A program made the translations under genes and the position numbers. Below the pieces are notes generated by a model, which did not search any database, was not told the origin of the DNA, and saw nothing but the letters and a program-made list of their open reading frames with translations. Below, piece after piece: positions 6,359 through 55,767 of a stretch of 64,000 bases of DNA. This DNA is from Pirellulales bacterium (GTDB taxonomy: Bacteria > Planctomycetota > Planctomycetia > Pirellulales > JAEUIK01): NCBI GenBank assembly GCA_019694455.1, contig JAIBBY010000003.1, positions 597-64,596 of the forward strand. The letters are read 5' to 3'. Positions within the stretch are counted from its first letter, which is position 1. The number at the start of each line of letters is the position of its first letter.

Positions 6359-6377
6359 TGAGTGGCCCCCCTTGGGC

Positions 6378-21571: not shown

Positions 21572-21706
21572 CGCGATATCTCGACCGTCATCGACCAATG
21601 TATCGACCGACTGAGCCGGCCCTTAGAACGCAAATACGGTTTCCGCTTATTTCCGAACCGCATTACGATGCGAGTTCCACGCAACGAGAAGGAGGAGATT
21701 TTCGAC

Positions 21707-29867: not shown

Positions 29868-30641
29868 TTAGGCGTGGACCTGCACGCCGCTATCGACCGT
29901 CAGCGTTTCTCCCTGCACCATGTCCGACAGCGAGCTAGCCAGAAACAGCACGCAATTGGCAACATCGTCAGCGGTTAGATAACGCTCGCCGGTCATGTTG
30001 CGGAACTGTCGCCCCGCGAAGAGTTGGTCCGCATAGGGTATCTTGCGCGTGGAGTCGGTTTCCACGAGTCCGGCCCGCACCACGTTCACGTTGATCCCTT
30101 TGCCGCCCAGTTCCATGGCCAGGTGCCGCACGATGCTTTCCAGAGCGGCCTTGGAGCCGCCAATCAGGCCGTACAGCGGCAATGCCATGTTCGCGCCATG
30201 ACTCGACAAGGCGATGACCTTGCCGCGCCCCTCGCGCTCGTCGGTGCGCTCCAGCAAGTTAGCGCTTTGCTGCACCAGGTGCAATAAAGCCATGACGTTG
30301 GTCTTCATGGCCGCCTCGAAGTTGCGCGGGCTAGCCGACAATAGCGGTCGGAAGCCGCCCGTCGCGGCATTGCTCACCAAGATATCGAGTCGCCCAAATC
30401 GCTCCGCGACGAACTCGACCATGGACGCCACATCGTCCTGTTCGCTGACATCGGCCTTGACGACCGCGGCGCGGCTGCCGCGCGCCAAGATCAGGTCGCC
30501 GACTTCGCGGGCGGCGCTCTCGGAGGTGACATAGTTGATGATCACGTCGGCGCCTGCGTCGGCCAGCTTCAACGCGCAGGCCCTGCCAATGCCGCGCGAG
30601 CCCCCCGTGACAAGCGCCACGCGTCCGGTCAGGTCGATCAT
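29868..30641 (-). CDS. SDR-family enoyl-[ACP] reductase, FabL-like
   Basis: 257 aa from the ATG at 30641. Contains 'TGGSRGIGRA', and 'YGLIGGSK' is a Tyr-x6-Lys spacing typical of FabI/FabL rather than the YxxxK of ketoreductases. It begins 28 nt downstream of the PKS stop codon. Confidence 0.75.
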   Translation of the reverse strand: MIDLTGRVALVTGGSRGIGRACALKLADAGADVIINYVTSESAAREVGDLILARGSRAAVVKADVSEQDDVASMVEFVAERFGRLDILVSNAATGGFRPLLSASPRNFEAAMKTNVMALLHLVQQSANLLERTDEREGRGKVIALSSHGANMALPLYGLIGGSKAALESIVRHLAMELGGKGINVNVVRAGLVETDSTRKIPYADQLFAGRQFRNMTGERYLTADDVANCVLFLASSLSDMVQGETLTVDSGVQVHA

Positions 30642-30669: not shown

Positions 30670-33600
30670 CTAAATGGCTTTTTCGGCGGCGAGCACCGTG
30701 GTGTACTGCGCGACGTCGAGAATCGCGTCGCCGCTTTCGCCGTAGAGTGTGAAATCAAAAACGCTGTGCTTTTCGGCGCGACTGCGAAAATGGAACCGCA
30801 GCATGCACTTCTCGCCCGCGCGTGGCTGACGCGCCAACCGCAGAAAGCCGATGCGGTGCGGCAACTCCAAACGGCCTGAGAACTGCAGAAAAATAAAGCT
30901 GCCGCAGGCCACGACGCAGGCGTCGAGCACGGCGGAAGGAAAAACCCAACCCTGCTCGCCGCGCGGCCCAGCCAGTTCGGCGAGCGACGGCGCAACGATG
31001 CGGGCGAAGCCACCCTCATAATCAAAACTGAACTCTTTGAGCGCGCGCAGCTTGTGGCCGTGGTAGAGCAAGCCGTTGTCGGCATACACAAACGGCAGCC
31101 AACCGACTGCCGGCTGGTCCATCGGCGGCGCGGCCAGGTCAGTCTGGCGCGACCCCAATTCGACGCGGCCGCTGGCGCAGGCCCGCGCCGGATCGACCAT
31201 CAGTCCTTTGCGATTGCGCACTTCGACCGTCAGCCGGGCGTCGCGCTGTGGCCCATCGCCCGACAATCGCACATGCGCGCTGACCGTGCGCTGCGGTTGA
31301 CACTTGATGCCTTGCACAATCTCAAAATCGCGCACCGCCACGACCTGCTGCCCCGTGGCCGCGCTGGCGGCCTGCGCCATCGCTTCCAGCGCCAGGACGC
31401 CCGGCAAGAAGGGCGCGCCGCGCAAGGTGTGTTCGATCAAGAACGGGTCGACTTCCGGATTGAAGCGCAACTCGGCCACTGACGAATGCGGCGCTTCGCC
31501 CGCCTGTACGCTCGCAATCAAGGGTGGCAGCGCCGGCGGCGATTGCTCTTTGATCGTCGCGACCGTTTGTTCGCGTTCGCCATAGAACAATCCTTCAAAA
31601 TAGCCATCGGTGACGACCACCTCGGGCGTCGGCAGCGCTGCGGCAAGTTCGCGCTCGCAGTGTCGCACCCCCTCGGATGGCGAAATGTATTTCATGGCCA
31701 GCGAATTGCGATTGATTGGCACGCTGTCGCTAAGCATGGCCATGCCAATTTCGTCCCAGGTCTGCCAGGCGATCGAAGCGGTGGCGCAATCGGGGCGTTC
31801 GCCACGATGCCAAGATCCGAGCTTGGCCAGCACTTCGTTGGCGGCCGCGTAGTCGCTGAGACCGTTGCCGCCGTAACGGCCGCTGATCGATCCGAACGAC
31901 AAGAAATGCCGCACAGGATCTTGACGTGTCAGCGCCATCAGCGCGAGCGCGCCATCGAATTTGGGCGCGAGTGTGCGTTCGATCAGCGCTCGCCCCTTCA
32001 TTTCCAATCGCGCGCTCTTGGCGTAACCGGCGCCGTGGATCACACCCGCAATTGGGCCATCTTGCGATCGCACTTGGTCCAGAACGCGCGACAGGACCTC
32101 CCAATTCGAGACGTCGCACGAGTGGTAGGTCGCCGCGACCTGCGCCGCGCGGAACTTCTCGAGCGTGGCGTGAATCTCACGCCCCTTTTTCACGCGCGCC
32201 CAATCCTCCTCCGGCGAGCGACCATCGGCGACCGCGCGGCGGACAATTTCTTGTTTGATCTCTTTCAATCGGGCATCGTCCGCATCGAGCCAAGGCGCAT
32301 CGGCGGGTGGCAAGGGACTGACGCCAACCAGGTGCAACTTCAATCCGTACTTTTTGCCTAAATGCAGCGCAGTGGCCGCGGTGATTCCGCGTGCGCCGCC
32401 GGTCACCACCCAGACACTGCCGGGCGTGATCGAACAGGCGTCGCTGTCCGCAAGCTCGCGAGGAGTCACGCGCGTGGTAAATCGTCGCCCGGCCTGCCAG
32501 GCCACCTCAATCTCATGGGTGGCGGCGGCCAACTCCGCCACGATCGCCTCCCCCACCTGTTGCGGTGGTTCACTGGCGGCCAGATCGATTACCTGGCAGC
32601 GGATGGCGCGGTCTTTGCGGCGCGCCCCTTCGACATGCACCGACTTGACGAGCCCCGCCAAGGCACCCCCCTCCGGCGCGAAGCCAGTCGATGCGATGCC
32701 AAAGTCGCCCCCCAAATTCGTCACAGCGACCAGATTCGAATTAGCGGAAGACTGAATGCCGCTCAACCGCTTGAGCCAACGCTGAGTCACCAAGAAGGGC
32801 AGCACGATGCCGCGTTCGCGCCGCTGCCGAATGGATGCCGGAGTATCCAGCAACATGGCGTCGGGATCGCGGGCCGTGACCAGCACCAGGTGTGCGGCAG
32901 GTTCAGTGGACCACTGGGCATCAAGCCGGGCTAACACTTCGTCGATTTCGCCATCCAGCGCAGGATGCTGAACCGTCTCGCCGCGAGCCGTCAACATTTG
33001 AGCGATCGCATCGGCGTCGGCATTGTCGCCGAGGACGCAAACAGTCCCTTCAAGCGCCGCGTCACGCGATGCTCGATCCAATGGCGACTCCTCCAAGGTC
33101 AATACAAATCGGCGGGCGACATCGCCGCCAGACGAGTCAACCGCAGTCGTCTCTTCCGTTTCGTTCGTGGCGGAGGGCTCGAATGGATGATCGGCCGATC
33201 CGGGACCGTAGTAGCGTTCAAAGAATTCGCGACTGGTAATCAAGGCCTCGGTGTCATCGGCGTCGGCGGCCAATTCACGAACCAAGTGCGCCAAGCCATC
33301 GCGCTTCGGCATCAACTCCGGCGCGTCGGTCATCTGAAAGGTGGCTCGCGTTTCGGGACGATAGGCCATGCCCACCTCGTCCCAGGGATGCCAATGGAAC
33401 GTGATCGATCGCACATCGGGCCGTCGCGCGCGATACCAACCGCTCAGCTTGGCCAACATGTCGCTGGCAGCGCAGTAGTCAGCCTGGCCATTGCTGCCCA
33501 GCCGTCCGCTAATCGAACCGAAGCCGACGAAATGGCGGATTGGATCGGACTGGGTCAAAGTCATCAGGTTGTACGCCCCGGTGACTTTGGCGCCGAGAGT

Positions 33601-36600
33601 GGCGGCGACTAGCTCGGGGCTTTTCTTCTCAAATTTGCCGGAACGCTCTATGCCGGCGCCGTGCAGCACGCCGGTGATCGGCCCGCTGCGGCGGACTTGG
33701 TCCAACACGCGGGCCAGAGCCTCGCGATCAGTCACGCTGCACGTGTAATAGTCGAATGCGATGCCTGCGGCGCGAAACGCGTTCAGGTTCTTTTGAACCT
33801 CGATCGCCTTTTCCACTGGCGCCCAGGCGTCGGTCGGACGACGGCCAGCTTTTTGAGCCTCCAGAATCACCTGCGACTTCAACTCTCGCAGGCCGTTCTC
33901 GTCGAGCGTCAACCATTCGGCCGGCACATTAGGAAGCGGACTCGTTCCGAGCAAATGCAGCCGAACATCGTAGCGCTGCGCCAATTCACGCGCGCACTCC
34001 GCGGTGATGCCGCGCGCGCCGCCGGTAATAATCCAATTGCCCTGCGGCACGCGATCGGCGCGAGGCGCATCGGCCAAACGCGCCGGAATGGCGTTTTGCA
34101 AGTACCGGCGCTCTTTGCGAAATGCGACTTCGTAATCGATGGACCGCGCGGCCAGTTCGCGCAAGATATTCTTTGCGAGCGCTTCGGCAGGCTCATCGGC
34201 CGGGGCATCGATCGCCTTGACCAGCAGATTCTTCTGGTCGCGCATGATCTTGAACTCGATACAGAGCGCCTTGATCAGTCCCGCCAGCGCTCCCCCTTCC
34301 GGAGAGGCGGTCTGACCGCCAAACCCAAGATCGCCGCCGTGACATGTCAGCGCGACGACGGTGGAGCGATCGAGCCACTTCTTCGCCACGGCCTGCGTCG
34401 TCCATGCCTGTGTTAAAAAGAAAGGCGCCACCACCGCCGATTCCAAGCGCGCGTCGAACTGCGCGGGATCGCCCATGTCGGCGCTGGTCGCATCGAAATG
34501 CGACAGCAAGAACAAATGGGCGACCGGGCCTTGGGCCCAGAATGCCTCGATCTGTTGCCGCATCTCCGCCAGATTGCCCATGCGGGTTATTCGATGCACT
34601 ACGGCGCCCGTCGCCCGGCATTGCCGCGACAACGCCTCGGCAACTGGATTGTCCCCCACGATCAATGCGGCGCCTTGCCACACCGGCGCGGCCGGCGTGT
34701 TGGCGGCGAACGCCATAGGGATGGTGCGCATGGTGAACCGCATACTCTCCAGCGGATCACGCGGAGTCGACGCGATGGTCGGTGGCGACTGCTTGGGCGT
34801 TTTGGCCGCGCGACCGTTGACGCTTCCGGCCGTTGGCCGTTTGGGTTCGATTCGCGCCTTCCAATGGTCCGGGAGACGAGTCGACTCCTCGCCAATCCAC
34901 AGGAGACCTTTACCCGGATCAATGACCACCGAGAGGTGTGACCAATCCTCCCGCCGGTCGGCGACCGCAATGGCGACTTCTTGACGAGCGACCGTCGCTT
35001 CGGCGCGACAGGCGTCGCGCACCAGATCGGCCACGGGATAGTGTCCGGCCTGCGCTTGAGTCGCCAATGCCTCCCAGCGCGAGCGTGTCGCAGCGAGCGG
35101 CGACGCATCGATGCCGAGCGCCACCACCAAGACATCGTCGGCGGTTTGCGCGCTAGTAGCGGACGGGTTTTGATAGTGAATGGCCGTGGGCGCGGCGCTC
35201 CCTAGCAAGATTCCGACCGAAGGTGATGCGTCAGCCGCCTCCAAGGCGCTGGCGACGTCTCGCCCGCGAGTCAGCGCCCGCGCGACAGTGCGCGCCCAGC
35301 CTTCCGCTGGCGCCTGACCCGGCAGTGGCGCGGCGCTGGCGGTCAACCCCTCCGCGTTCACGCCGGCAATGCCGCCGACTGTGCCCACAAGTCCTACCAG
35401 CGCGTGTTCGACTCCCAGGAGCGGCTGGCGAATGAACACGGCCGGCTGCAGCACTTCGTCGAACGCGGCCATTAGGGGCCCAGTCCATGCTGCGGCATGC
35501 AAGAGCGACGTATCGCTCGCCTCGCGCGCGGCGAACTGCAGGCTGGATTGGCCCACATCCACAAATGCCGCGTTTTGATGCGCCATGATGCCCGCCAGCG
35601 GAACCTCTGCTCCGTCAGCGATACCTTGCAGTTCGTCCAGCTCCTGATCGGTGAAACGCTGCTGCGAATCACCACCTGCCGGCCCGACGCACGCCAAGTC
35701 CCCCAGATCGGCATATGTCCGCAATATCTGGCGGATCGCTCGCCGATAATGGCGACCATGGGCAAGCCCCATCTCATACGGCGTGCCAGTTTGCGCCACG
35801 GGCTCACATGCGGTCGGCGCCGACGGCGACAGATCGTAGGTCGGTGGCAAAACCGAATCCTCAATCGTCACCGCCGCGGGTGGCGCGATGGTGTCGGTCG
35901 CGCCGACCGCATTCTCAAAAGGGTGGGCAGTCGCCTCCCCGTTCGTTTCATGGCCGCTCATGCTGGCCGCAAACGGTGCAGACGCTCGAAATGGCACGGT
36001 GCGAAGGAAGTCGAGCACGTGCCGCAGCGTGGGAAACTGGTCGAGGGTCAGCTCCTCTGTCGGCACCACATCGAAATACTCCTGCAACTCGCCGAAGAGC
36101 TGCGCCTTCTTGATGCTGTCGATGCCGAGATCGGCCTCCAGATCGGCGTCGAGCTCCACCACTTCCGGCGGATAGCCCGTTTGCTCGACTACGAAGTTGA
36201 TTAAGAAGCGTTCCAGCTCATCGACGTTGGGGGCATGAGCGTTGGCCGCGGCAGCCGGTTGTGGCGCCGGCCCGGTAACCGGAGGCGGCTCGGCCTGCGG
36301 CGCGGCTGCGCTCTCGGACAGCGACAAAGACGCCGTCGCCCGAATTGGCACGGTGCGAAGAAAGTCGAGCACGTGTCGCAGCGTGGGGAACTGGTCGAGG
36401 GTCAGCTCCTCTGTCGGCACCACATCGAAATACTCCTGCAACTCGCCAAAGAGCTGCGCCTTCTTGATGCTGTCGATGCCGAGATCGGCCTCCAGATCGG
36501 CGTCGAGCTCCACCACTTCTGGCGGATAGCCAGTCTGCTCGACCACAAAGTTGATCAAGAAGCGTTCCAGCTCATCGACGCCGGGCGCCGCCGGAGCTGC

Positions 36601-39600
36601 TGCCGGCGATGGGCTCGCAGGCGGAGCAGGTGTCGGCGCTGTCGACCGTGAGGGCGCAGCGGCCGCAACCTCGTCCAGGCCGGCGCCTTTCATTGGAACC
36701 GTGCGGAGAAATTCGAGCACGTGCCGCAGCGTGGGAAACTGATCAAGCGTCAGCTCTTCTGTCGGCACCACATCAAAATACTCTTGCAGTTCGCCAAACA
36801 GTTGGGCCTTCTTGATACTGTCGATGCCGAGATCGGCCTCCAGGTCGGCGTCGAGCTCCACTACATCCGGCGGATAGCCCGTCTGCTCGACCACGAAGTT
36901 GATCAAAAAACGCTCCAGGTCGACAGTGCTTGGCGCCTTGGCGACAGGTGCGGGGTGAGGCGTAACGGCATGCGGCGCGTGACCATTTTGAGCCACCGGC
37001 GCGGCAGGCGCTGGGCGTGGTGGCGGCGGCGCGGGTGCAGCCGCTTGAGCTACCGGCTTTGGCGGAGCGCTGACAGGCGCAGCGGTCCGAGCCGCACGCG
37101 CGCCGCCCGATTGGGCCGTCTGTCGCATCCGCTCGCGGCGACGCGTGGTGGCGTCGAATGCCAACAGCGGTTCGCGACGCGGTGGCCGCGCCCCCCTACC
37201 GCCAGGCAAAGGTTGTGGTGATCCATGCTCCATATCAAAAACTCCCATCACCGATAGGGCGGCCCGAACTTGTTCAATCTGCTCCAGCCCGAGCCGCTTT
37301 GGCTGATCGCAAGCAATCGCAACTTGGTCTGTTGAATCGAGAATGCGCCGATGCAAGCCGCTCAGCACCTGCTGCGGCCCCACTTCCACCAGCACGCATG
37401 GCTGGCCGGCGCTCACCGCATGAACCAGATCGACATACATCACCGGCGACGTATTGTGACGCGACAGATTGTCGCGAGCCTCGTCGGCGGTGGTCACCGA
37501 TCGGTTGGTGACGACGCTCCAAAACGGCACGCGCGGATTTGAGAACTGCGCCTCGGCCAGCGCTCGTTCCAAAGGCTTGCCCGCGGGCGCCATCAATGGT
37601 GTATGAAACGGCGCCGGAACCGCCAGCAACTTCGCGCCGATGCCGGCGCCCTTGAGAATGGCTTCAAAGCGAGCGAGATTTTCCGGGGCGCCGCCAACGA
37701 CTGTTTGGTCGGGGGTGTTGACGTTGGCGACATGGATCGCCAATCCTGCTTGTTGGGCAAGCTCGGCTACCCGCTGAGCGGAACCGCCCGCGGCCAACAG
37801 GCCCCCCTGCACTCTCGCCGCGGCGATACCATCGCAGCGGGCGCGCGTCAAAGCGATGGCGGTCTCGATGTCGATCGCGCCGCTGGCGGCCAGCGCCGAG
37901 TATTCGCCGAAGCTATGTCCCAGCACCGCGTCGGGGACGATACCAACGGATTGCACCGTCCGAAACATCACCCAATTGGCGATCAGCATCGCTAATTGAG
38001 TTGGCCACACTTGCTTGCCCATGGCGGCGCTGTCGCCCCAGGCAAGATCGGAAAATGACTGGTATCCATAGCGCTCCAGAATCGCTTCTACTTCGTCTAG
38101 CGCTTGTCGCGCGGCCGGCGATTGCTCGACAAGAAGCTTGAGCATTCCTGGGTACTGCGAACCTTGCCCCGGAAAGCAAAAGACAACACGCGGACGCGCG
38201 CGCGGTGTTTCACTCAGATAGATCCCTTGTTGGCGCAGCACCGCCTGCCCGGCAGGCGATGATCCCTGCTTGACGGCGAGTTCCAACTTGGCAGCTAGCG
38301 ATTGTGGAGTGTCGGCGACAATCGCTGCGCGGAAGCGATCGCTCAACCGGAAGAGTCGCTCGCTGCCCTGCGCGAAAAGTTCCGCAGCCCGGCCGCAGGC
38401 GGCGGTCAATTCGCTGATCATCCCTTCTGCCGAGTCCGCTGCGAAGGTAAGCACGCGCGAACCGACCACGCTGGGATCGACCGGAATAGCAAACGGCGAT
38501 GCCGCAGCGGGCTTTGACGCCGGACTCGGCTTGGCGTTCGTAACGTTGGCGGACTGTTTGACGCTGGTCTTGCCGCGGGCCGGCTTGCCGACCGCCTTGC
38601 CCGACTCGATCAGCACATGATAGGTCAGGCCGCGCGATCGCGAACACACGGCCGCCAAGGCGCCTTCGCTGGCGATTTCGGCAACCGATGTTTGAGAGGT
38701 TGGCGTAGTCAGCCCATCGGACGCGATGGGCTGACGGACATCGACCGGCCTTGGCAAGATGCCGCGATCCAATTCCAAGCTGGCCTTGATCAAAGACGCC
38801 ATGCCGGCGGCGGCCTCAGCATGGCCGATCTGCCCGGCGACGGAGCTTAACATCAGCGGCCGAACGCGATCGGCGACCGTGTGTAACTGCGAGAGGGTGC
38901 GCAGTTGGTCGGCGCCTTCGTCCACACTCATCGCCCCGTCGACTTCCATCAGGCCGATATCTGCAGCGGCGCGATCGGCGGTGGCTAGCGATCGCTCGAT
39001 CGACACCCGCAGCGCCTCGCCCGCGCTCGCATGGTGCGCGGCGCCGATGCCGCGAATGGTGGCCACGATGGGGTCGCCATCGCGGCGCGCGTCGGCCAAT
39101 CGCTTGAGCAGCATCACCCCCACCCCTTCCGCCGGCACGTAGCCGTGCGCGGCCTGATCGAGAGGGGAACTCGGGGTGCCGTCGGCGCAGAGAGCGCCGT
39201 TGATCGCCAATCCTTCGTACTCCGGCAGCCCTAAACGTCGCTGCCCGGCCGCGCAGATCATCATATCCACATCGCCACACAACAGCGCGTCGACGCTCAC
39301 CGAAAGGGCCGCCAGCGACGAGCAATGACCACTATCGATGGCAACAGCGCCCCCCATTAAGTTCCAGGTCTTGGCCGTCCGTGAAGCGAGCGAGCTAGTG
39401 CTGAAGCTCCCCGTTTCATCGATCAACGCTGGCCAATTGGCGAGCAGACGTTTGTCGTACTTCTTTTGGATTGTCTCAATTCGATCGGCTGCGGCGCCAC
39501 CGTCGCGCAAGATGGCCGCGATGTGCCGCTTGAGTTCTGGCAGGCGCAGGCCCATTTGCAATTGGAAGGCGAAATCGCCGCCGAACTCGGTGCCGACCAC

Positions 39601-41556
39601 CACTCCGACTCGCGTGCGGTCGAAATCGCGCCGGTCGTAGCCCGCCTGCTTAATCGCCTGATCGGCCGCGTCGAGCAGCATGAACTGCAGCGGATCGGCT
39701 TGCTCCACCTGCTTGGGCGGAATCTTGTGCGTCTTCCAATCGTAGACGAAGTCGGTGATGAAACCGCCACGCTTGGTGGGACTGTGATACGCGCGGCGCG
39801 AGCCGGGCTCATACGCCAAATCGGCGCGCCAGCGCTCGGGCGGCACGTCGCATTTGGGGTCACGTCCCGATACAAGCAATTCCCAAAACTGATCTGTATG
39901 GCGCGCTCCCGGCAGCACACATCCCATGCCGATCACGGCAATCGCGTCGTCATCGGCCGATTGCGGTTGGTTGCCCGCCATGGTGTTCTCGGGCAGAGCA
40001 ATCAACCGGCGCGAAGCCTCGTTGAACTCCTCAACCGCCACATGCATGTTCAGGCCGCCAATGCCAAACGCGTTGACCCCGGCGCGACGCGGCCGACCAT
40101 CGGGATGCGGGGCCCAGGGGGCGGGCGCTCGCGGCACGAACACCGGCACCTGGTCCCATTCGATTTTGGGATTTAGTTGACTGACGTTGGCCGCCGGAGG
40201 AACCGTGTTGTGCCCGAGCGCCAGCACGGTTTTGATAACGCCGGCAATACCCGCTGTTTCCAGAGTGTGGCCGATGTTGGCCTTCACACTGGTGATCGGC
40301 ACCTTCTTGCCCGGCGGCAGTTGACCGGCCAGCACCTCGGCCAGCGTGTTCAGTTCGGTGGCGTCTCCCAATTGAGTCGCCGTGGCATGGGCTTCCACGT
40401 AGTCGAGGTCGCCCAGTTGCAAGCCATCGCGATATGCTCGCTGCATCGCGAGCACTTGCCCTTCTTTGCGTGGCGCCCACAGGCTCTTTCCCTTGCCATC
40501 GCTGGAAACCCCCAAGCCACGCACCACGGCGCGGATCGGATCGCCGTCGGCCAGCGCCCGCTCCAGCGTCTTCATGACCAGCGCCACGTAGCCCTCGCCC
40601 ACGATGAGTCCATCGGCGTCTGCGTCAAATGGCCGCGAACCGGTGGAGCTCATCGCGCGGGCATGCGCGAACAGCACCAGCGAATCGCCCTTGCAGTCGG
40701 AGGCGCCGCCTACGATCACCATGTCGGCCCGGCCCAGTTGCAGCGCCCGCGCGCCAATCAGCATCGCCTGCAGCGACGAAGCGCACGCCGAGTTGAGCGC
40801 CAGAAACGGACCATCCAATCCAAACGCCTTGCTGAGCGTGCCAGCCACTAGGCTGCACGCAACGTCGGGCGAGGCCGCGGTGCGGATTGGCAAAGGCGCT
40901 CGCACGCGCGACACCAATTCGGCGATCACGCGATCTTGTTCCGCCTGTGGCAGCGCGGCGAACTCGTCCACCTCGCGCAGCATTTCGGCGGCTTCGTGCG
41001 CATAGGTGGCATAGGTGTATTCGCCACCGAGTGTGCTGCCTTGCGCGTGGCCAATGTACACGCCGGTGTTTTTGATGGGCACATTGAAGGGATCGATGCC
41101 AGCGTGGCGGAGCGCGGCGGCGGCCACCTCGCACATCAATAGGTGCGACGCGTCAACGCTGTTGGCCAACTCGTCGGCAATGGGGCAGGCGGCGCGATCA
41201 AAGTCGCGGCTTTTGACGATCGCCCCCATCTTGGAATAGGTCTTGCCCACCACGCCCACTTTGGGGTCGTAGTACATATCTTGATCGAGCCGATCGGGCG
41301 GCAACTCGGCGACGGCAGTTCGCCCTTCTACGACCAACCGCCAAAATTCATCGAGATTGTCGGCGCCAGGCAATTTGCAGCCCATGCCGATGATGGCAAG
41401 CGGAATTCGCGACCTGCTAGTCATGTTCGAATGGACTCCTGAATTGCCGGCGAGGTGCGTCGCCGCGGGCGACCCCGCCATGGGTCCACCGGCCGATCGG
41501 TCCGTCCGAACGGCCGTACTCCGAAGGGGCGCCCATCGCAAGCGCCCTAGGCTCAC
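30670..41556 (-). CDS. Iterative type I PKS / secondary-lipid synthase (3628 aa): KS, CLF-like KS, AT, 3xACP, AAT(C45)-like, KR, KR, DH
   Basis: Approximate domain coordinates:
- KS 40040-41405: 'NSACASSL', 'EAHATAT', 'NIGHTLETAG'.
- CLF-like KS 38610-39950: 'DSGHCSSL', with the first His replaced ('MEVDGAM').
- AT 37335-38195: 'GHSFGE'.
- Three ACPs 35990-36924: 'LGIDSIK'.
- AAT-like domain 34885-35800.
- KR units 33205-34745 and 31580-33125: 'TGGARGIT'.
- PS-DH 30673-31520: 'HTLRGAPFLPG'.
The start could be the GTG at 41556 or the ATG at 41424. Confidence 0.95.
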   Translation of the reverse strand: MSLGRLRWAPLRSTAVRTDRSAGGPMAGSPAATHLAGNSGVHSNMTSRSRIPLAIIGMGCKLPGADNLDEFWRLVVEGRTAVAELPPDRLDQDMYYDPKVGVVGKTYSKMGAIVKSRDFDRAACPIADELANSVDASHLLMCEVAAAALRHAGIDPFNVPIKNTGVYIGHAQGSTLGGEYTYATYAHEAAEMLREVDEFAALPQAEQDRVIAELVSRVRAPLPIRTAASPDVACSLVAGTLSKAFGLDGPFLALNSACASSLQAMLIGARALQLGRADMVIVGGASDCKGDSLVLFAHARAMSSTGSRPFDADADGLIVGEGYVALVMKTLERALADGDPIRAVVRGLGVSSDGKGKSLWAPRKEGQVLAMQRAYRDGLQLGDLDYVEAHATATQLGDATELNTLAEVLAGQLPPGKKVPITSVKANIGHTLETAGIAGVIKTVLALGHNTVPPAANVSQLNPKIEWDQVPVFVPRAPAPWAPHPDGRPRRAGVNAFGIGGLNMHVAVEEFNEASRRLIALPENTMAGNQPQSADDDAIAVIGMGCVLPGARHTDQFWELLVSGRDPKCDVPPERWRADLAYEPGSRRAYHSPTKRGGFITDFVYDWKTHKIPPKQVEQADPLQFMLLDAADQAIKQAGYDRRDFDRTRVGVVVGTEFGGDFAFQLQMGLRLPELKRHIAAILRDGGAAADRIETIQKKYDKRLLANWPALIDETGSFSTSSLASRTAKTWNLMGGAVAIDSGHCSSLAALSVSVDALLCGDVDMMICAAGQRRLGLPEYEGLAINGALCADGTPSSPLDQAAHGYVPAEGVGVMLLKRLADARRDGDPIVATIRGIGAAHHASAGEALRVSIERSLATADRAAADIGLMEVDGAMSVDEGADQLRTLSQLHTVADRVRPLMLSSVAGQIGHAEAAAGMASLIKASLELDRGILPRPVDVRQPIASDGLTTPTSQTSVAEIASEGALAAVCSRSRGLTYHVLIESGKAVGKPARGKTSVKQSANVTNAKPSPASKPAAASPFAIPVDPSVVGSRVLTFAADSAEGMISELTAACGRAAELFAQGSERLFRLSDRFRAAIVADTPQSLAAKLELAVKQGSSPAGQAVLRQQGIYLSETPRARPRVVFCFPGQGSQYPGMLKLLVEQSPAARQALDEVEAILERYGYQSFSDLAWGDSAAMGKQVWPTQLAMLIANWVMFRTVQSVGIVPDAVLGHSFGEYSALAASGAIDIETAIALTRARCDGIAAARVQGGLLAAGGSAQRVAELAQQAGLAIHVANVNTPDQTVVGGAPENLARFEAILKGAGIGAKLLAVPAPFHTPLMAPAGKPLERALAEAQFSNPRVPFWSVVTNRSVTTADEARDNLSRHNTSPVMYVDLVHAVSAGQPCVLVEVGPQQVLSGLHRRILDSTDQVAIACDQPKRLGLEQIEQVRAALSVMGVFDMEHGSPQPLPGGRGARPPRREPLLAFDATTRRRERMRQTAQSGGARAARTAAPVSAPPKPVAQAAAPAPPPPRPAPAAPVAQNGHAPHAVTPHPAPVAKAPSTVDLERFLINFVVEQTGYPPDVVELDADLEADLGIDSIKKAQLFGELQEYFDVVPTEELTLDQFPTLRHVLEFLRTVPMKGAGLDEVAAAAPSRSTAPTPAPPASPSPAAAPAAPGVDELERFLINFVVEQTGYPPEVVELDADLEADLGIDSIKKAQLFGELQEYFDVVPTEELTLDQFPTLRHVLDFLRTVPIRATASLSLSESAAAPQAEPPPVTGPAPQPAAAANAHAPNVDELERFLINFVVEQTGYPPEVVELDADLEADLGIDSIKKAQLFGELQEYFDVVPTEELTLDQFPTLRHVLDFLRTVPFRASAPFAASMSGHETNGEATAHPFENAVGATDTIAPPAAVTIEDSVLPPTYDLSPSAPTACEPVAQTGTPYEMGLAHGRHYRRAIRQILRTYADLGDLACVGPAGGDSQQRFTDQELDELQGIADGAEVPLAGIMAHQNAAFVDVGQSSLQFAAREASDTSLLHAAAWTGPLMAAFDEVLQPAVFIRQPLLGVEHALVGLVGTVGGIAGVNAEGLTASAAPLPGQAPAEGWARTVARALTRGRDVASALEAADASPSVGILLGSAAPTAIHYQNPSATSAQTADDVLVVALGIDASPLAATRSRWEALATQAQAGHYPVADLVRDACRAEATVARQEVAIAVADRREDWSHLSVVIDPGKGLLWIGEESTRLPDHWKARIEPKRPTAGSVNGRAAKTPKQSPPTIASTPRDPLESMRFTMRTIPMAFAANTPAAPVWQGAALIVGDNPVAEALSRQCRATGAVVHRITRMGNLAEMRQQIEAFWAQGPVAHLFLLSHFDATSADMGDPAQFDARLESAVVAPFFLTQAWTTQAVAKKWLDRSTVVALTCHGGDLGFGGQTASPEGGALAGLIKALCIEFKIMRDQKNLLVKAIDAPADEPAEALAKNILRELAARSIDYEVAFRKERRYLQNAIPARLADAPRADRVPQGNWIITGGARGITAECARELAQRYDVRLHLLGTSPLPNVPAEWLTLDENGLRELKSQVILEAQKAGRRPTDAWAPVEKAIEVQKNLNAFRAAGIAFDYYTCSVTDREALARVLDQVRRSGPITGVLHGAGIERSGKFEKKSPELVAATLGAKVTGAYNLMTLTQSDPIRHFVGFGSISGRLGSNGQADYCAASDMLAKLSGWYRARRPDVRSITFHWHPWDEVGMAYRPETRATFQMTDAPELMPKRDGLAHLVRELAADADDTEALITSREFFERYYGPGSADHPFEPSATNETEETTAVDSSGGDVARRFVLTLEESPLDRASRDAALEGTVCVLGDNADADAIAQMLTARGETVQHPALDGEIDEVLARLDAQWSTEPAAHLVLVTARDPDAMLLDTPASIRQRRERGIVLPFLVTQRWLKRLSGIQSSANSNLVAVTNLGGDFGIASTGFAPEGGALAGLVKSVHVEGARRKDRAIRCQVIDLAASEPPQQVGEAIVAELAAATHEIEVAWQAGRRFTTRVTPRELADSDACSITPGSVWVVTGGARGITAATALHLGKKYGLKLHLVGVSPLPPADAPWLDADDARLKEIKQEIVRRAVADGRSPEEDWARVKKGREIHATLEKFRAAQVAATYHSCDVSNWEVLSRVLDQVRSQDGPIAGVIHGAGYAKSARLEMKGRALIERTLAPKFDGALALMALTRQDPVRHFLSFGSISGRYGGNGLSDYAAANEVLAKLGSWHRGERPDCATASIAWQTWDEIGMAMLSDSVPINRNSLAMKYISPSEGVRHCERELAAALPTPEVVVTDGYFEGLFYGEREQTVATIKEQSPPALPPLIASVQAGEAPHSSVAELRFNPEVDPFLIEHTLRGAPFLPGVLALEAMAQAASAATGQQVVAVRDFEIVQGIKCQPQRTVSAHVRLSGDGPQRDARLTVEVRNRKGLMVDPARACASGRVELGSRQTDLAAPPMDQPAVGWLPFVYADNGLLYHGHKLRALKEFSFDYEGGFARIVAPSLAELAGPRGEQGWVFPSAVLDACVVACGSFIFLQFSGRLELPHRIGFLRLARQPRAGEKCMLRFHFRSRAEKHSVFDFTLYGESGDAILDVAQYTTVLAAEKAI
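35990..36924 (-). repeat. Three tandem ACP-coding repeats (periods about 354 and 348 nt)
   Basis: Cores lie at 35990-36226, 36343-36580 and 36692-36924. The first two differ by roughly ten substitutions by eye and encode identical 78-aa cores. Confidence 0.9.
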
Positions 41557-41559
41557 GTG

Positions 41560-43020
41560 TCACGCGGCCTGCGGACTGAGTTGCCCCGTTAAACTCCCCA
41601 TCGCGTCGAGCAAATTGCGGTGGAGCGCGGACGGCGCCTCGAAGACCAGTTTGCCTGCGGCCAAGGCGTCGGTCGCCGCGACATCGCCGCGCGACAATTG
41701 TTCGAGTATGTGCGCGTTCACATACACCAGACCGACGGCATCTTCTGAGAAACCACGTTCGGCGCCCACGATCTCGCTGCCGCGAAGCAGCAGGCTCCAT
41801 TGCCCGCCACCGCGGCCCGACACATCGAGCGAAACGCGCTGGTCGGCGTTGGCCGCTTGATTGGCGCTGACGAATCGCGACAACAGTTCCTGCGCGTCGA
41901 ACTCAAACTCGATCTTTTCGTGCTTGGGCGAGGCAAAGTTGTGCTCAATGGGATAACGCGCGATCGTCATCATTTGATCGTAGTCCATGACCGGACATGG
42001 CAAGTGCGACAGCACGCGACTGGAGTGCGTGAGGTCGAATTGCGGATCGTCGCGCCAGTGAGATTCGTAAATCTGCATGTGGTGGTGGAACAATTGTTCG
42101 CAGGCGGCCAAGTCGCGCGGATCGGCTTGGTTGGCGGTGGTGCGCTTGGAGTACTTGCGGATTGCGTCCTGCGTCACGCTCTGAATCAATCGAACGCTCA
42201 CTGGCTGCGGCGACGCAAGGTGGTATGTGCCACCGTGATAACGGCGGTTGCGAATAATGTGCAGCATGCCCGCTGCCACCCAATCCACCGGCACAAAGTT
42301 TTTTCCTTCGTGGCCTTGCAAACCGAGCCGAGCAAAAAACCGCTCGCCCATCTCTTCGGGCGGTATTCGGCCCGACATCGTGTAGGCCAATTGCAGCGGC
42401 AGATAGAAACCGTGATAGCTCGTGGTGTAGCCAGTGCGCGAGTCGCCGACGATGCTGGCCGGCCGATGCACAGTGCAGGTTTCGAAACCGCGCACTGAGC
42501 GGACCGCCTTTTCGGCGGCGAGTTTGCTGGCCTCGTACACATTGCCAGCTTCTTGCCCCAAATCGAGTTCGGTTTCTAGCACACGTCCGGTGCGCACACC
42601 ACACAGATAGGAGGTCGACACATGATGAAAGTGTCGGACGCCGGCCCGCTGGCACACCTCTAGCACTCGACGCGTGCCTTCGGCGTTGGTGCGGTGCGGC
42701 TCGCCATCTGGCTGCGCGCGAAACACCAGGCTGGCGGCGCTATGGACCGCGGTATGCACATGCGAGCGAAGCCAAGCCAGATCGCCCCCATCCAGGCCCA
42801 AATCGGATTCGCGCAGGTCACCTTCCAGAATCACAGGTCGCCGCATCGAGCGCCCCGCGATCCCTTCCCAACGTTGCACAAGCGCTTCAATTCGCTGGCG
42901 TGCGGTGCTTAATTTGCCCGGGCGTACGATCACCGCCAGGTGCTCGCCGCCCAGTAACAAATCGCGCATTAAATAGCGACCCAGCAACCCGGTTGCGCCC
43001 GTCAGCAGCGTATATGACAT
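41560..43020 (-). CDS. Stand-alone thioester/fatty-acyl reductase (NAD-binding SDR-e) with an SCP2-like C-terminal domain
   Basis: 'MSYTLLTGATGLLGRYL' is the Rossmann motif, and 'YEASKLAAE' is YxxxK. The C-terminal ~110 aa ('QWSLLLRGSEIVG...LSRGDVAATDALAAGKLVFEAP') follows an SCP2 pattern. The stop lies 4 nt before the PKS ORF. Confidence 0.8.
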   Translation of the reverse strand: MSYTLLTGATGLLGRYLMRDLLLGGEHLAVIVRPGKLSTARQRIEALVQRWEGIAGRSMRRPVILEGDLRESDLGLDGGDLAWLRSHVHTAVHSAASLVFRAQPDGEPHRTNAEGTRRVLEVCQRAGVRHFHHVSTSYLCGVRTGRVLETELDLGQEAGNVYEASKLAAEKAVRSVRGFETCTVHRPASIVGDSRTGYTTSYHGFYLPLQLAYTMSGRIPPEEMGERFFARLGLQGHEGKNFVPVDWVAAGMLHIIRNRRYHGGTYHLASPQPVSVRLIQSVTQDAIRKYSKRTTANQADPRDLAACEQLFHHHMQIYESHWRDDPQFDLTHSSRVLSHLPCPVMDYDQMMTIARYPIEHNFASPKHEKIEFEFDAQELLSRFVSANQAANADQRVSLDVSGRGGGQWSLLLRGSEIVGAERGFSEDAVGLVYVNAHILEQLSRGDVAATDALAAGKLVFEAPSALHRNLLDAMGSLTGQLSPQAA

Positions 43021-43281
43021 AAGAAATGAAAGTCCTGTTGCCCGTTGACTCAACGCTGCCTGGCCGATCATCGGCGGACGGCGCGTGGCTAGTGCTATCA
43101 AGCACCGTGCTAGCGGTCGTTTATAGCGACATTAAGATAATAAAAATACAGCGATTGAGAAGACTGGGTATATTGAGTCGCGAATTACACGCTTCCGCCT
43201 CATGTGCGAATTGATACCACAGCGGTCGCTCAGCAATCGGCGCGATCCATCGAATTGGTTGCCATTTGAACCAAGCTCCAT

Positions 43282-45669
43282 TTGCGTGATGCCATTTCCG
43301 GTGAGATTCCATTGAGTTCCCACGAAAACAGAAAATCTCGGCGATTCGCATTTTGGACCGTGATCCTGTTTGCACTTGGTGCGCCGATCGTCTTTTCGGG
43401 AATGGTACTTTCACTGAGCCAAATGCAGAACGATGTCACGCAGTGGCTACCAGCGGAGTATCCCGAAACGCGGGAGTTCGTCCGCTTCCTTCAGCACTTC
43501 GACCCCGAGGCGTTCGTCCTAGTGAGCTGGGAGGGCTGCACGCTGGATGACCCGCGTGTGGCGCGCTTTGCCGAGGGTCTGGTCGGGGCGCCCAGCATCG
43601 AGCCGGGCGCCACGCGTTCTCCTTACTACAGCAAGGTCATCACCGGTCCCAGCATGCTGGAAACGCTAACCAGCACGCCTATCAATCTGACCCGCGAACA
43701 GGCGATTCAACGCTTGCGCGGCTCGTTGATCGGCCTGGATGGGCGCACGACCTGCGTCGTATTTTCCATGACTCCAGAAGGCGTTGCGCACATGCGACCT
43801 GCCATCGACGCCTTATACGAGGTAGCCCAGCGTGAGTGCGGCCTTACGCAAGCGCAACTCAAGCTCGGTGGACCACCGGTCGACAATGTCGCCCTCGACG
43901 TGGCGGGCGAGCAGAGCATGCTGCGCGTGCTTGGGCTGACTTCGGTTTGTGGTCTCTTGGTCTGCTGGTGGTGTTTGCGCCATCCCTTGTTGATTGCGGT
44001 GGTGTTGATCGCCGGGTTTTACACGGTGGCGGCAAGTTTGAGCGTCTTCTACTTCACGGGCGGGGTGATGAACGCGATTGTGCTCACCATGCCCCCCCTG
44101 GTTTATGTGGCAGGGGTGTCCGGCGCTATTCATCTCGCCAATTACTATCGCGAGGCGCTGCCCGAACACGGGGTAATCGACGCGCCGTGGCAAGCGGTGC
44201 GGCAGGCCACCTTGCCGCTGCTGTTAGCCACTTTCACCACGGCCGTAGGGCTACTCTCTCTAGCCGCCAGCGAACTGGCGCCAATTCGGACGCTCGGCAT
44301 TTACTCGGCGATTGGGGTGTTCATTGGTCTGGGCTGCATCTTGTTGTGGGTGCCTGCGGTGCTGGAACTTTGGCCCGTCGTCGAGCGGCCGCGCCAAACT
44401 TCGGCAATCCACCGGAGAGGGCTCGACGGATCGCAATTGACGCGGCTGGGCGCCGCCTACCCCAAGTTGGTCACGGTATGTGTCCTGGTTCTGCTCGGCG
44501 GCGTGGCCTGGGGTGCGACGCGCTTGGTGTCGTCGGTGCAAATCATGCGGCTGTTTTCGCCCGATGCCAAGATCATCAGCGATTATGCCTGGTTGGAAGA
44601 GCGACTCGGCCCGCTCGCGCCGATCGATGTGGTGGTTCATTTCGCCCCGAACTGCGCGCTTGATCTTCGGCAGCGGATTGAATTGGTCGAGGACTTGCAA
44701 GGCCGCGTCAACGAGTTGGAACATGTCGGCAGTTCGTTATCCGCCGCCACCTTCGCGCCCGATTTGCGCGCCATCGCTCGGCCGCAGAGCGGCACGGCAT
44801 CGATCTTCAATCGCAAGCGCATGCGGCAAACCGTACAAAAGGTTCGGCTCGAGCGACATCGCGCCGATTTTGTGCGATCGGGATTCTTGCGAGATGCGGA
44901 CGGCGGAGAGCTATGGCGAGTCACGGCGCGCGTTGCCGCTCTCGCGGATGTCGATTACCACGCGTTTACGCAATCGCTCGACGCCGCCGTGCAACCGCTC
45001 GTGCGCGGCCTTCAAAAACGAGGTTTTGATGGCGTGTCGGTAACCTATACCGGAGCGCTGCCGATTGTCTATCAAGCGCAAAACTCGTTGCTGCGCGGCA
45101 TGCTCATTGGCTATGGCAGCGACGTGGCCTTGTTGGCAGTGGCAATGGTCGTGGTGATGAACAGCCTGTCGGCGGGGCTCATTTTGCTCGCCGCCAGCGT
45201 GTTGCCGGCGCTGGCGGTGTTTGGCGCCATGGGTTGGCTAGGCATCGTGGTCGACATGGGAGCGGTGATGCCGCCCAGTGTGGCGCTCGGAGTCACAGTC
45301 GACGACGTGATGCATTTTCTCTTGCGCTACCGCGATGGCGTGCGCGCGGGGCAATCGCGCCGCGATGCGGTTCTCGAAGCGTATCATCATTGTGGCCGCC
45401 CCATGTATCAAAGCTGGGCTATTCTCGGGCTGGGAATCTTGGCCTTCGCCTTCAGTCCCTTTTTACCAACGCGTCGATTCGGCTACGTGATGGTGGCGCT
45501 GTTGACGGTCGGGCTGATTGGCAACTTATTGTTCCTCCCGGCCCTTTTATGTGGTCCGCTGGGACGGCTCTGGCAACGGTCGCTGTTGAAGCGGTCTGAA
45601 ACGCGCCGGACCGAGCAGGAGCAAGCAGAACCGGCGCCGGCCGTTTCCACCGTGGCGGCCGTGCGCTAA
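43282..45669 (+). CDS. MMPL/RND-superfamily transporter
   Basis: 795 aa with two blocks of about 6 TM helices, each preceded by a large loop. The start is uncertain: TTG at 43282 or TTG at 43312. Confidence 0.8.
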   Translation: MRDAISGEIPLSSHENRKSRRFAFWTVILFALGAPIVFSGMVLSLSQMQNDVTQWLPAEYPETREFVRFLQHFDPEAFVLVSWEGCTLDDPRVARFAEGLVGAPSIEPGATRSPYYSKVITGPSMLETLTSTPINLTREQAIQRLRGSLIGLDGRTTCVVFSMTPEGVAHMRPAIDALYEVAQRECGLTQAQLKLGGPPVDNVALDVAGEQSMLRVLGLTSVCGLLVCWWCLRHPLLIAVVLIAGFYTVAASLSVFYFTGGVMNAIVLTMPPLVYVAGVSGAIHLANYYREALPEHGVIDAPWQAVRQATLPLLLATFTTAVGLLSLAASELAPIRTLGIYSAIGVFIGLGCILLWVPAVLELWPVVERPRQTSAIHRRGLDGSQLTRLGAAYPKLVTVCVLVLLGGVAWGATRLVSSVQIMRLFSPDAKIISDYAWLEERLGPLAPIDVVVHFAPNCALDLRQRIELVEDLQGRVNELEHVGSSLSAATFAPDLRAIARPQSGTASIFNRKRMRQTVQKVRLERHRADFVRSGFLRDADGGELWRVTARVAALADVDYHAFTQSLDAAVQPLVRGLQKRGFDGVSVTYTGALPIVYQAQNSLLRGMLIGYGSDVALLAVAMVVVMNSLSAGLILLAASVLPALAVFGAMGWLGIVVDMGAVMPPSVALGVTVDDVMHFLLRYRDGVRAGQSRRDAVLEAYHHCGRPMYQSWAILGLGILAFAFSPFLPTRRFGYVMVALLTVGLIGNLLFLPALLCGPLGRLWQRSLLKRSETRRTEQEQAEPAPAVSTVAAVR

Positions 45670-45682: not shown

Positions 45683-46999
45683 TCAGGTTCGACTTTGCAA
45701 CGTTTGCTGAATCCGCTCCATCAGGTTGTCGGCTAATTGGTCACGTTCAGCGCTGGTGAACCAAGCGGGGTCGCAACGCACGAATAGGCCCAGTCGACCA
45801 GCGTAGGTGAGCGCCACGACGGCCAGACGAGTGCCTCGCCGCAGGGGCGCCGTACCCGAGATTCCCTCCAAGCGCAGGCCGCCACATAGTGCGCGGCCGT
45901 CGTCTTGCGCGTGCGGCCATTGAGAGAAGACGGGCCCCACATTACTGAACACCGCCGTGGCGAACGACCACTGCCGGCGCAAGAACCAATCGACAATCCC
46001 GCGCGACTTGCAGGCGATCTTTAGTCCGCCTACGAAATACAAGCCAATTCTCCAGCGTTTAATGGCGGTAGTCTGCCGCTGAATAGCTCGCAGCAAGGCG
46101 GTTCGGTCCGCCATCTGCTTTGGCTTCCGCGTCACGAAGGCGAAGCTCAGCACGTTCGCCACTGGCATTCGCCAATCTTCTTTCTGTCTCAGGTTGGTCG
46201 GCACCAGGATTCGCAATCGGCCGCGCTTCAGTCCGTGGTCGCGGTTCCAATCGGCGAGCGTCAGCAGCAGATCGCGCAACAGCAAATCGTTGACCGTAAC
46301 CCCTATTTCATGCGCGATCTCCACCAGTGAGGCCGATTGCTCGCGGCGCAACCACTCAGTATGGAAACTGACCGACTGACCACTGCCGCCACTCGCCGCG
46401 GGTTGCGCTGACGCCACGACCGCTGCCCGGCGTGAGACCAGTGGCCACCAGGCTCGTACGGTATTGACTCCATCCATGAACGTGGGCTGATAGTCCGCCA
46501 GGCCATATTCGTCTCGACGGGCCAGACTTGTGGCATCCAGCTCTCGCCACTGTGGCTCCCCCGATTTGCCATCCACAACATGCGCATACGCCAGCAACAA
46601 TTCTTCGGCGAACAGCAACGCAGCCAGACCATCGGAGCAGGCGTGATGAAACACAAGCCAAACGATCGATTGCTCTGCCGCCGTGTCCACACAAACACGT
46701 AGCCCGCCGGCCGTGCAACCTGTCAAACCAAGGCAATCGACCAGCGGCGCTTCGCCAGGGGCGAGTTCCACAACCTGCGGGGCGTCGCCGGCAACCCAGA
46801 CGGGCCAACGACCACTGGCGTCGATGCGCGCCGTTAGTAAGGGATGGCGCACAAGCGATATTTGGAGCGCGATATCCAGGGCCGATCGATCTAGCGCGCC
46901 GGACAGTTCCAATCGCACCGGAAAGATCGGCGGATACTCCGGACGATCGTCGGCCAGGTAGTAATACTCGAAGGCCGTCACCGGCAGCGGAAGTATCAC
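45683..46999 (-). CDS. Condensation-domain-type acyltransferase (PapA/WS-DGAT-like, HHxxxDG)
   Basis: 438 aa from a GTG start. The catalytic motif 'FHHACSDGLA' is present. Confidence 0.75.
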   Translation of the reverse strand: MILPLPVTAFEYYYLADDRPEYPPIFPVRLELSGALDRSALDIALQISLVRHPLLTARIDASGRWPVWVAGDAPQVVELAPGEAPLVDCLGLTGCTAGGLRVCVDTAAEQSIVWLVFHHACSDGLAALLFAEELLLAYAHVVDGKSGEPQWRELDATSLARRDEYGLADYQPTFMDGVNTVRAWWPLVSRRAAVVASAQPAASGGSGQSVSFHTEWLRREQSASLVEIAHEIGVTVNDLLLRDLLLTLADWNRDHGLKRGRLRILVPTNLRQKEDWRMPVANVLSFAFVTRKPKQMADRTALLRAIQRQTTAIKRWRIGLYFVGGLKIACKSRGIVDWFLRRQWSFATAVFSNVGPVFSQWPHAQDDGRALCGGLRLEGISGTAPLRRGTRLAVVALTYAGRLGLFVRCDPAWFTSAERDQLADNLMERIQQTLQSRT

Positions 47000-55560: not shown

Positions 55561-55767
55561 TGCTAGCTCGGTGAGCCAATGGCATGTAGGTCGAAAAATC
55601 GCCTAAGTCAAAGTCTTGCTGACGTTTGGCGACGCACCACGCGCAAGAATCGACTGTCGCAATTCTCTCTCGCGCGGGTTGTGGCGGCACATCCCGTACA
55701 ATACGAATAGCTGCGTGATCTCTCGCAAGCCGAAAAGCGGGCAACCGATTGGCAATCCGCGGAATTG

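Follow-up and report, generated by a model that had tools for sequence, protein, structure and literature searches.

The stretch of DNA analysed here (the window; 64,000 nucleotides of contig JAIBBY010000003.1 from a Pirellulales bacterium) carries on its minus strand, at 30670..41556, a type I polyketide synthase (PKS) gene whose mechanical open reading frame (ORF) encodes 3,628 amino acids (aa). Pfam and NCBIfam profiles resolve the translated protein into the order KS - KS2 - AT - 3xACP - C45-like - psiKR/KR - psiKR/KR - DH, in which KS is a ketosynthase, AT an acyltransferase, ACP an acyl carrier protein, KR a ketoreductase, psiKR the structural subdomain of a KR, and DH a dehydratase. The subject of this study is the C45-like domain (aa 1917-2225; 34882..35808, minus strand). 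It is a degenerate copy of an N-terminal nucleophile (Ntn) hydrolase-fold domain akin to those of the peptidase C45 family, the family of acyl-CoA:isopenicillin N acyltransferase (IAT, PenDE). The evidence presented below shows that the domain is descended from this family and suggests that it is probably dead as a catalyst, an ancestral and fixed module of the synthase that has been kept as a structural hub or spacer.

A gap of ~410 aa follows the ACPs in the Pfam and NCBIfam domain order, and it holds the C45-like insert; the peptide strings quoted in an earlier annotation (aa 1923-2075) lie in its first half. This initial annotation, made from the sequence alone, had placed an IAT-like domain at 34885-35800, between the ACPs and the KRs. 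The domain order bears out this placement, and the span was right; the feature lies on the minus strand (residues ~1919-2224), and the plus-strand translation is full of stops. The assignment of the domain draws on the NCBIfam model NF040521, the envelope of the family profile (aa 1917-2225), a profile match in the Protein Data Bank (PDB), and an AlphaFold2 (AF2) model searched with Foldseek. The equivalent of the IAT alpha-subunit, or pro-region (aa 1917-2003; 35548..35808), is helical and conserved and carries the motifs GTPYEMG..HG and ELDELQGIADGAEVPL. The equivalent of the IAT beta-subunit, or catalytic core (aa 2004-2225; 34882..35547), has lost the catalytic signature. It begins with Ser2004-Ser2005 (35542..35547), which according to the alignments and the AF2 model occupy the position of the autoproteolytic Gly-Cys. 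A low-complexity linker of 57 aa (35809..35979) lies between the third ACP and the C45-like domain; it is 25-38% identical to its counterparts in relatives, which is typical for linkers.

Homology and fold of the insert

Evidence that the insert is related to the C45 family comes from profile comparisons. NF040521 (C45_proenzyme, the model for 'C45 family autoproteolytic acyltransferase/hydrolase') matched it with E-values of 7e-12 to 3e-12 and 45-47 bits, in an alignment that covers profile positions 1-310 of 313; the score of 46.6 bits is under the curated cutoff of 85 bits. A profile built from an alignment of 38 homologous domains (A1) ranked the crystal structures of IAT (2x1c/2x1d/2x1e) first in the PDB, with an E-value of 1.6e-23 over 277 positions, followed by CV2077, acid ceramidase, NAAA, and choloylglycine hydrolases. 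A second profile, built from Cys-less relatives only (A2), again ranked IAT first (E 1.1e-4). Furthermore, tblastn of the insert matched annotated Mesorhizobium genes for a 'C45 family peptidase' (E 4e-4). Other searches with the insert came back empty. The Pfam AAT model (PF03417), which the initial annotation had suggested for a check, failed to recognise the window copy even at E<=1. No PDB entry was matched by phmmer with the insert as a single sequence. A word-indexed protein search gave no match with the insert alone and only 7 short proteins with profile A1.

The predicted fold points to the same family. With alignment A1, AF2 produced a model of the insert with a pLDDT of 83.6 and a pTM of 0.85; the fold is driven by this alignment, which contains intact relatives, and a model made from the sequence alone told nothing about the fold (pLDDT 36). 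The model has the alpha-beta-beta-alpha core of Ntn hydrolases with a helical pro-region ahead of it. Foldseek placed IAT (2x1c/2x1d/2x1e) at the top (E 3e-13, TM 0.65-0.69) and precursors of NAAA and acid ceramidase next, the whole range being E 3e-13 to 2e-9 and TM 0.61-0.69. S2004 and S2005 are model residues 89-90, the first of strand 89-96, which is the canonical position of an Ntn nucleophile. Confidence drops over model residues 271-290 (pLDDT 38-46), the stretch that holds the LRDR.D...PTMNT..R.DN motifs in the intact family. Taken together, profile matches and the structural model show that aa 1917-2225 is homologous to the peptidase C45/IAT family, with a similarity well above chance, and shares its fold.

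The domain and IAT are alike in fold and in the order of their elements (helical pro-region, cleavage-site strand, alpha-beta-beta-alpha core), and the motifs GTP[YF]E.G..HG, E..GIA.GA, and G.N.AG are common to both. The initial annotation had aligned the two by eye; its pairings are the same as those in the HMMER alignment against 2x1c/2x1d, and all four strings that it quoted are present in the protein (TGTPYEMG... at aa 1923-1945, QGIADGAEVPL... at aa 1977-1998, VGQSSLQF at aa 2001-2008, and GTVGGIAGVNAEGL... at aa 2058-2075). IAT is a free protein of ~357 aa that cleaves itself at G102|C103, and its Cys103 moves acyl groups off CoA thioesters. The window copy, unlike IAT, resides inside a 3,628-aa PKS, has Ser-Ser at the cleavage site, is devoid of equivalents of N119/D121 and of the C-terminal motifs, and is missed by Pfam AAT.

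The nucleophile site and the catalytic signature

An exhaustive HMMER search with the insert recovered 142 representative proteins at E<=1e-3 (60 at E<=1e-10). In a MAFFT alignment of these relatives, S2004-S2005 are aligned with a family Gly-Cys that corresponds to IAT G102-C103, in agreement with the earlier claim that no Cys stands at the cleavage site. Among ~140 sequences, G is present in 95, C in 92, and the exact GC pair in 77. About 20 residues after Gly-Cys the family has an N-x-D motif, which corresponds to IAT N119-W120-D121 if a 4-residue longer hairpin is assumed. Instead of N-x-D, the window copy has A2023-W-T2025.

Most copies, about two thirds of the relatives, have Gly-Cys as part of a full signature that is strictly kept over 19 diagnostic columns (N-GC-H-N-D-R-N-D-S-E-HS-R-R-D-D-R-D), which argues for a maintained catalytic function in the intact module. 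The window copy reads Q-SS-H-A-T-R-N-G-G-N-AT-R-A-A-T-R-D at these columns. In other words, it has kept only H2020, R2043, N2067, and a few others, and it has lost N2023 (to A), D2025 (to T), D2080 (to G), S2119 (to G), and E2130 (to N), as well as H2156/S2157 (to A/T), R2163 (to A), and D2185/D2188 (to A/T). The C-terminal family motifs NH..L, P.HS..R..RL, LRDR.D, and PTMNT..R.DN are absent from it or unalignable.

A recurrent module of planctomycete synthases

The initial annotation had proposed a survey of synthases with such a domain. Nearly all of the representative relatives turned out to be synthases with the domain at the same place. Nearly all long ones have the order KS-KS2-AT-(ACP)0-4-[C45]-psiKR-KR-(psiKR-KR)-DH(-DH), their domains being labelled by comparison with those of the window PKS, whose own module likewise lies between ACPs/AT and psiKR-KR. 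The closest full-length relative (P0001; 3,626 aa) has a domain order identical to that of the window PKS. Named members are Planctopirus limnophila ADG67503, proteins of Bremerella and Blastopirellula, and many metagenome-assembled genomes (MAGs) of Pirellulales and Planctomycetaceae; a few members from MAGs are labelled Roseimicrobium and Thermomicrobiaceae, with Verrucomicrobiota and Chloroflexota as phylum labels.

The module behaves as an autonomous unit because genes begin or end at its borders. Some start exactly at its N-terminus and encode C45-KR-KR-DH (e.g., P0044 and P0042), and some end just past it and encode ACPn-C45 (e.g., P0002 and P0087). Splits were seen only at domain borders; none among the relatives fell at Gly|Cys, where it could be read as a trace of cleavage. 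Free C45 versions of ~350 aa also occur, for example P0074 beside a split PKS cluster. A Planctomyces sp. MAG (L011/L012) encodes a 512-aa free-standing ACP-C45 didomain with an intact Gly-Cys (P0143), away from PKS genes. Such an arrangement suggests that the ACP-C45 pair may be a functional unit in itself. Some synthases with an intact domain have no ACP and read KS-KS-AT-C45-KR-DH (L014, a metagenome contig, relative P0025); in L014 the genes for a stand-alone tandem-ACP protein of 590 aa, an AMP-ligase, and a reductase lie immediately upstream of the PKS.

Intact PKS-embedded copies include those of P. limnophila (ADG67503, P0041) and Bremerella (WP_224438666, P0163) and those of the MAG proteins P0022, P0079, and P0053. 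They have the same position and architecture as the window copy, are 25-31% identical to it, and are clearly its orthologues or paralogues. They differ from the window copy in having Gly-Cys, N-x-D, the full signature, and a Pfam AAT match, and a catalytic role is predicted for them. Precomputed Pfam annotation places AAT within intact copies, and PGAP names several of these PKSs, the three MAG proteins included, 'C45 family autoproteolytic acyltransferase/hydrolase'. Pfam AAT matched 29/38 and NF040521 38/38 of the sampled copies. The gene of Planctomyces limnophilus (now Planctopirus) was drawn as KS-MAT-ACP3-KR with the C45 domain unmentioned (Shulse & Allen 2011). A full-text literature search, with subscription-only papers outside its coverage, found no description of a C45, IAT, or Ntn domain within a PKS or polyunsaturated fatty acid (PUFA) synthase. 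The earlier statement that the domain is undescribed in pfa/hgl-type synthases holds for the papers searched; it does not hold for the databases, in which the recurrent module already bears a Pfam domain and a PGAP name.

How does the window PKS compare with known systems? Like PfaA/HglE-type synthases, it joins KS, AT, tandem ACPs, KR, and a PS-DH dehydratase, the pfa-type domain set found by Pfam, in one polypeptide. Its score with the PfaA model TIGR02813 is 988.3 bits, slightly short of the cutoff of 1010.1. Unlike PfaA, it has two KRs and a second KS right behind the first. It also has no partners of the pfaB/C/D kind: no domains of pfaB, pfaC (KS-CLF-DH-DH), or pfaD (enoyl reductase) were found in the scanned window ORFs, which exclude a few at about 18.3-20.6 kb. 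Canonical PfaA appears to be without the module, since the exhaustive HMMER search recovered none. The likeness of the domain to AzsT and Tri14 of the azaserine and triacsin pathways is at the family level. These are free-standing, active C45 peptidases that work in trans on carrier-protein-tethered intermediates. AzsT strips the succinyl group from succinyl-HAA-AzsQ (PMC10445470), and its activity is thus a precedent for C45 chemistry beside carrier proteins.

Relaxed constraint in a Pirellulales clade

A neighbor-joining tree of KR domains unites the fully degenerate copies in a single clade that branches from within the intact ones, indicating a single loss. The clade contains the window PKS, P0001, P0101, P0040, P0044, P0004, P0010, P0024, P0016, P0003, and the Pirellulales genome loci L001-L007. 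All 9/9 Pirellulales genome loci recovered with a 7-sequence alignment (Blastopirellula marina DSM 3645, Bremerella, Thermoguttaceae, and Pirellulaceae) are without the Cys. Separate and shallower losses, in which Cys is replaced by Gly and the remaining signature is intact, were observed in P0045, P0035, and P0061. Within the degenerate clade (n=26), the Cys position is occupied by S in 10 members, A in 7, T in 4, G in 2, V in 1, and M in 1, with one gap, and the position equivalent to D121 is essentially random.

The two halves of the domain have fared differently. Identity between the window PKS and P0001 is ~90% in the ACPs, 83% in the KS, 70-71% in the KRs, ~60% in the AT and DH, 49-51% in the psiKRs, and 36-41% in the long linkers. 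The alpha-part of the C45-like domain (aa 1919-2003) is 52% identical, and the beta-part (aa 2004-2225) is 35% identical. Across all pairs, binned by KR identity, the beta-part identity is 0.24-0.30 when both copies are Cys-less versus 0.45-0.70 when both are intact, and the two classes do not differ in alpha-part identity. The Blastopirellula and Bremerella copies are also missing some of the C-terminal half, and internal deletions in that half are seen in L002, L003, L005, and L006. Constraint is relaxed clade-wide, and the relaxation is limited to the catalytic half. Two candidate causes for the loss of the Cys were rejected. One was the two-KR architecture; both architectures are present in both classes. 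The other was the presence of a thioester reductase, which the intact-domain synthase L014 has too.

Other domains of the synthase and neighboring genes

The mechanical ORF of the PKS opens with a GTG that is 4 bases away from the stop codon of the reductase ORF upstream, and it thereby gains 44 residues that are not conserved (41422-41556). As the GTG abuts the upstream gene, translation probably begins at the ATG at 41424 (Met45), immediately ahead of the KS domain (aa 52-458). The second KS-like domain (38557-39921; aa ~546-1000) has a Cys in its active-site motif DSGHCSSL and is therefore no obvious chain-length factor of the Gln type. The AT (aa 1125-1413) is followed by three tandem ACPs (35980..36936; aa 1541-1859), recognised as three Pfam PP-binding domains. 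At the DNA level the array is a tandem repeat with a period of 354 bp, 2.7 copies, and 84% matches (TRF; 35983-36918). The three ACP protein sequences are near-identical among themselves and ~90% identical to the ACPs of the closest relative. Concerted evolution of the array is suggested. Beyond the C45-like domain lie psiKR1 (aa 2271-2500) and KR1 (aa 2501-2740; Pfam KR at aa 2506-2727), at 33337..34746, and then psiKR2/KR2 (aa 2801-3290; Pfam KR at ~3046-3290) and the PS-DH dehydratase (aa 3330-3628; Pfam PS-DH at 3355-3620), at 30673..33156.

Directly upstream of the PKS on the same strand is a thioester-reductase/fatty-acyl-reductase-type gene (41560..43101; PF07993 E 4e-40, TIGR01746 E 4e-31), whose homologues are found near the PKS in L002, L004, and L014. 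Its product is likely the chain-release enzyme. Directly downstream, also on the minus strand, is a FabL-like short-chain dehydrogenase/reductase (SDR) of ~254 aa (29868..30635; NF005975 FabL E 7e-75, under cutoff), and in L002, L004, L013, and L014 the PKS is likewise followed by this 254-aa SDR. The enzyme probably acts in trans as the enoyl/ketoacyl reductase that a synthase without an enoyl reductase domain needs. A divergent group consists of an MMPL/RND-type lipid exporter (43282..45669, plus strand; PF03176, HAE3 and HpnN-like models), a stand-alone gene with weak PapA5/WS-DGAT-like acyltransferase matches (45683..46999, minus strand; NF006787 PapA5 E 3e-12 and TIGR02946 WS/DGAT E 9e-11, both far under their cutoffs, and Pfam Condensation E 1e-5), and an alpha/beta hydrolase. 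An MMPL gene also adjoins the Blastopirellula PKS in L002.

Next to the PKSs of relatives, SDR, reductase, MMPL, and phosphopantetheinyl transferase (PPTase) genes recur; genes for a class-III aminotransferase, an AMP-ligase, and either a Rieske oxygenase or a GH3 enzyme accompany them. This gene content suggests that the product may be an exported, reduced long-chain lipid (an alcohol, aldehyde, or amine, possibly esterified). The combination of SDR and thioester reductase, with a PPTase in related loci, recalls the heterocyst-glycolipid island, and the arrangement of PKS, PapA5-like, and MMPL genes recalls the logic of mycobacterial phthiocerol dimycocerosate (PKS, PapA5, MmpL7). Genes located ~21 kb from the PKS (5462-9196, minus strand, and 831-2801, plus strand) encode a metallo-beta-lactamase-fold protein, an AMP-ligase, a class-III aminotransferase, and an asparagine synthase. 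Homologues of these four gene types directly adjoin related PKSs in L002, L004, and L014. A phage-type integrase gene (21668-23050) lies between the four genes and the PKS. The lipid cluster may be split in the window genome. Large ORFs of 403-700 aa without a Pfam match are present at 23609-25558 (minus), 53458-55560 (minus), 55765-58226 (plus), and 61644-62855 (minus); that at 23609-25558 had no NCBIfam match either.

A model for the origin and role of the domain

In the model favored here, a C45 domain was fixed in planctomycete-centred, PfaA/HglE-like iterative synthases of the order KS-KS-AT-(ACP)n-[C45]-psiKR-KR-(psiKR-KR)-DH. In intact members, self-cleavage at Gly-Cys would mature an acyl-thioester enzyme that acts on ACP-bound chains, by analogy with IAT on acyl-CoA and, further, with AzsT. 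The clade of the window PKS would have lost the nucleophile and its partners once, after which the beta-half drifted at linker-like rates and was partly deleted in some genera, and the N-terminal helical part stayed under constraint. The window copy would most likely neither cleave itself nor transfer acyl groups, and it has probably been kept as a folded hub or spacer, with the mobile triple-ACP array on one side of it and the KR-KR-DH block on the other. Chain release and tailoring would fall to the separate enzymes of the cluster, that is, the thioester reductase, the FabL-like SDR, and the PapA5/WS-DGAT-like acyltransferase, with the MMPL protein as exporter.

Several points weigh against this model. 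The AF2 fold depends on an alignment that contains intact relatives. Loss of activity is read from the sequence, in which H2020, R2043, and N2067 are still conserved across the degenerate clade and Ser or Thr stands at the nucleophile position in 14/26 of its members, including the window copy; Ser and Thr can act as nucleophiles, as they do in other Ntn hydrolases. The domain has been kept in a clade whose KS identity goes down to ~56-60%, and its alpha-part shows the same degree of conservation as psiKR, which together indicate that some function has been kept. Reductive release alone cannot explain the death of the domain, since L014 combines an intact domain with a reductase. The structural hub is the weakest step of the model and a purely inferential one.

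What else could the insert be? One possibility, which has very little to recommend it and is almost certainly wrong, is that the region has nothing to do with C45 and is instead a structural subdomain of the KR or a linker for docking. The silence of Pfam AAT and of single-sequence phmmer would fit it, but NCBIfam, the PDB profile matches, tblastn, and Foldseek all point to C45/Ntn hydrolases. Moreover, the genuine KR structural subdomain is psiKR1 at aa 2271-2500, a segment distinct from the C45-like domain, and in relatives such a pre-KR segment precedes each KR. The two outcomes that the initial annotation had named as fatal to its proposal, an empty profile search and a model resembling a KR subdomain or a linker, did not materialise. 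The structural comparison that it had suggested gave IAT as the best match and placed S2004/S2005 where the first core strand begins.

The initial annotation had left a choice between Ser-based acyl transfer or offloading and a structural relic; the evidence favors the relic and disfavors the Ser-based enzyme. It is improbable that Ser2005 (or Ser2004) has replaced the Cys and still acts on ACP-bound acyl chains, with or without self-cleavage. The Ser stands exactly at the Cys position, and the residues just mentioned (the Ser/Thr in 14/26 members and the kept H2020, R2043, and N2067) would suit such an enzyme. However, Ser-based catalysis is unlikely because the nucleophile position varies within the clade, with A, G, V, or M in close relatives of the same architecture. 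N-x-D and every C-terminal family motif are gone, the catalytic half changes about as fast as a linker, with parts of it deleted in Blastopirellula and Bremerella, and a Cys1Ser penicillin V acylase (2iwm, which is among the PDB matches) stays a precursor. Might the domain then be a neutral relic, mere polypeptide between the ACPs and the KR that has not yet been deleted? The beta-part is only as conserved as a linker, the C-terminal half has suffered internal deletions in four loci, and AF2 confidence is low at model residues 271-290, all of which lend this idea a measure of plausibility. It is nevertheless rather unlikely, for every member of a deep clade has retained the domain, the alpha-part and first core strands (GTPYEMG, ELDELQGIADGA, VR.P, and G.NA.GL) are as conserved as in intact relatives, and the spacing from ACP to psiKR has hardly changed (about 370-434 aa versus 418-451 aa in intact synthases). 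Another reading shares the dead catalytic half with the favored model and goes further, and it can be held only tentatively. It takes the intact module to be a new integral PKS domain that, by cleaving itself at Gly|Cys after translation, splits the megasynthase into KS-KS-AT-ACPn and a Cys-headed C45-KR-DH part, with the Cys taking over ACP-bound chains for off-loading or transfer, and takes the window copy to be more than a spacer, a pseudoenzyme that still binds the ACP or acyl chain, for example for parking or gating the chain or docking the triple ACP. The favored model, a dead descendant kept for its structure, is the one under which the finding is considered below.

Implications

As far as can be told, the window copy is a dead variant of a widespread module that automated annotation recognises and that is apparently unstudied. 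A domain of the Ntn-hydrolase/penicillin-acyltransferase type between carriers and reductive domains is outside the small, fixed vocabulary of PKS and fatty-acid megasynthase domains. The window copy also carries a warning for annotation, as Pfam misses it. For the host organism, the domain marks a lipid cluster composed of a PKS, a reductase, an acyltransferase, and an MMPL exporter. As a natural dead counterpart with the same scaffold and without the catalytic residues, the window copy would be useful for parting structural from catalytic roles. The more interesting lead is the family of intact modules with Gly-Cys inside a megasynthase. The module is conserved in well over 100 representative synthase clusters, chiefly of Planctomycetota, mostly with catalytic residues intact, and if the intact form does cleave itself, these organisms would possess megasynthases that cut themselves in two, with new chemistry of chain transfer or release.

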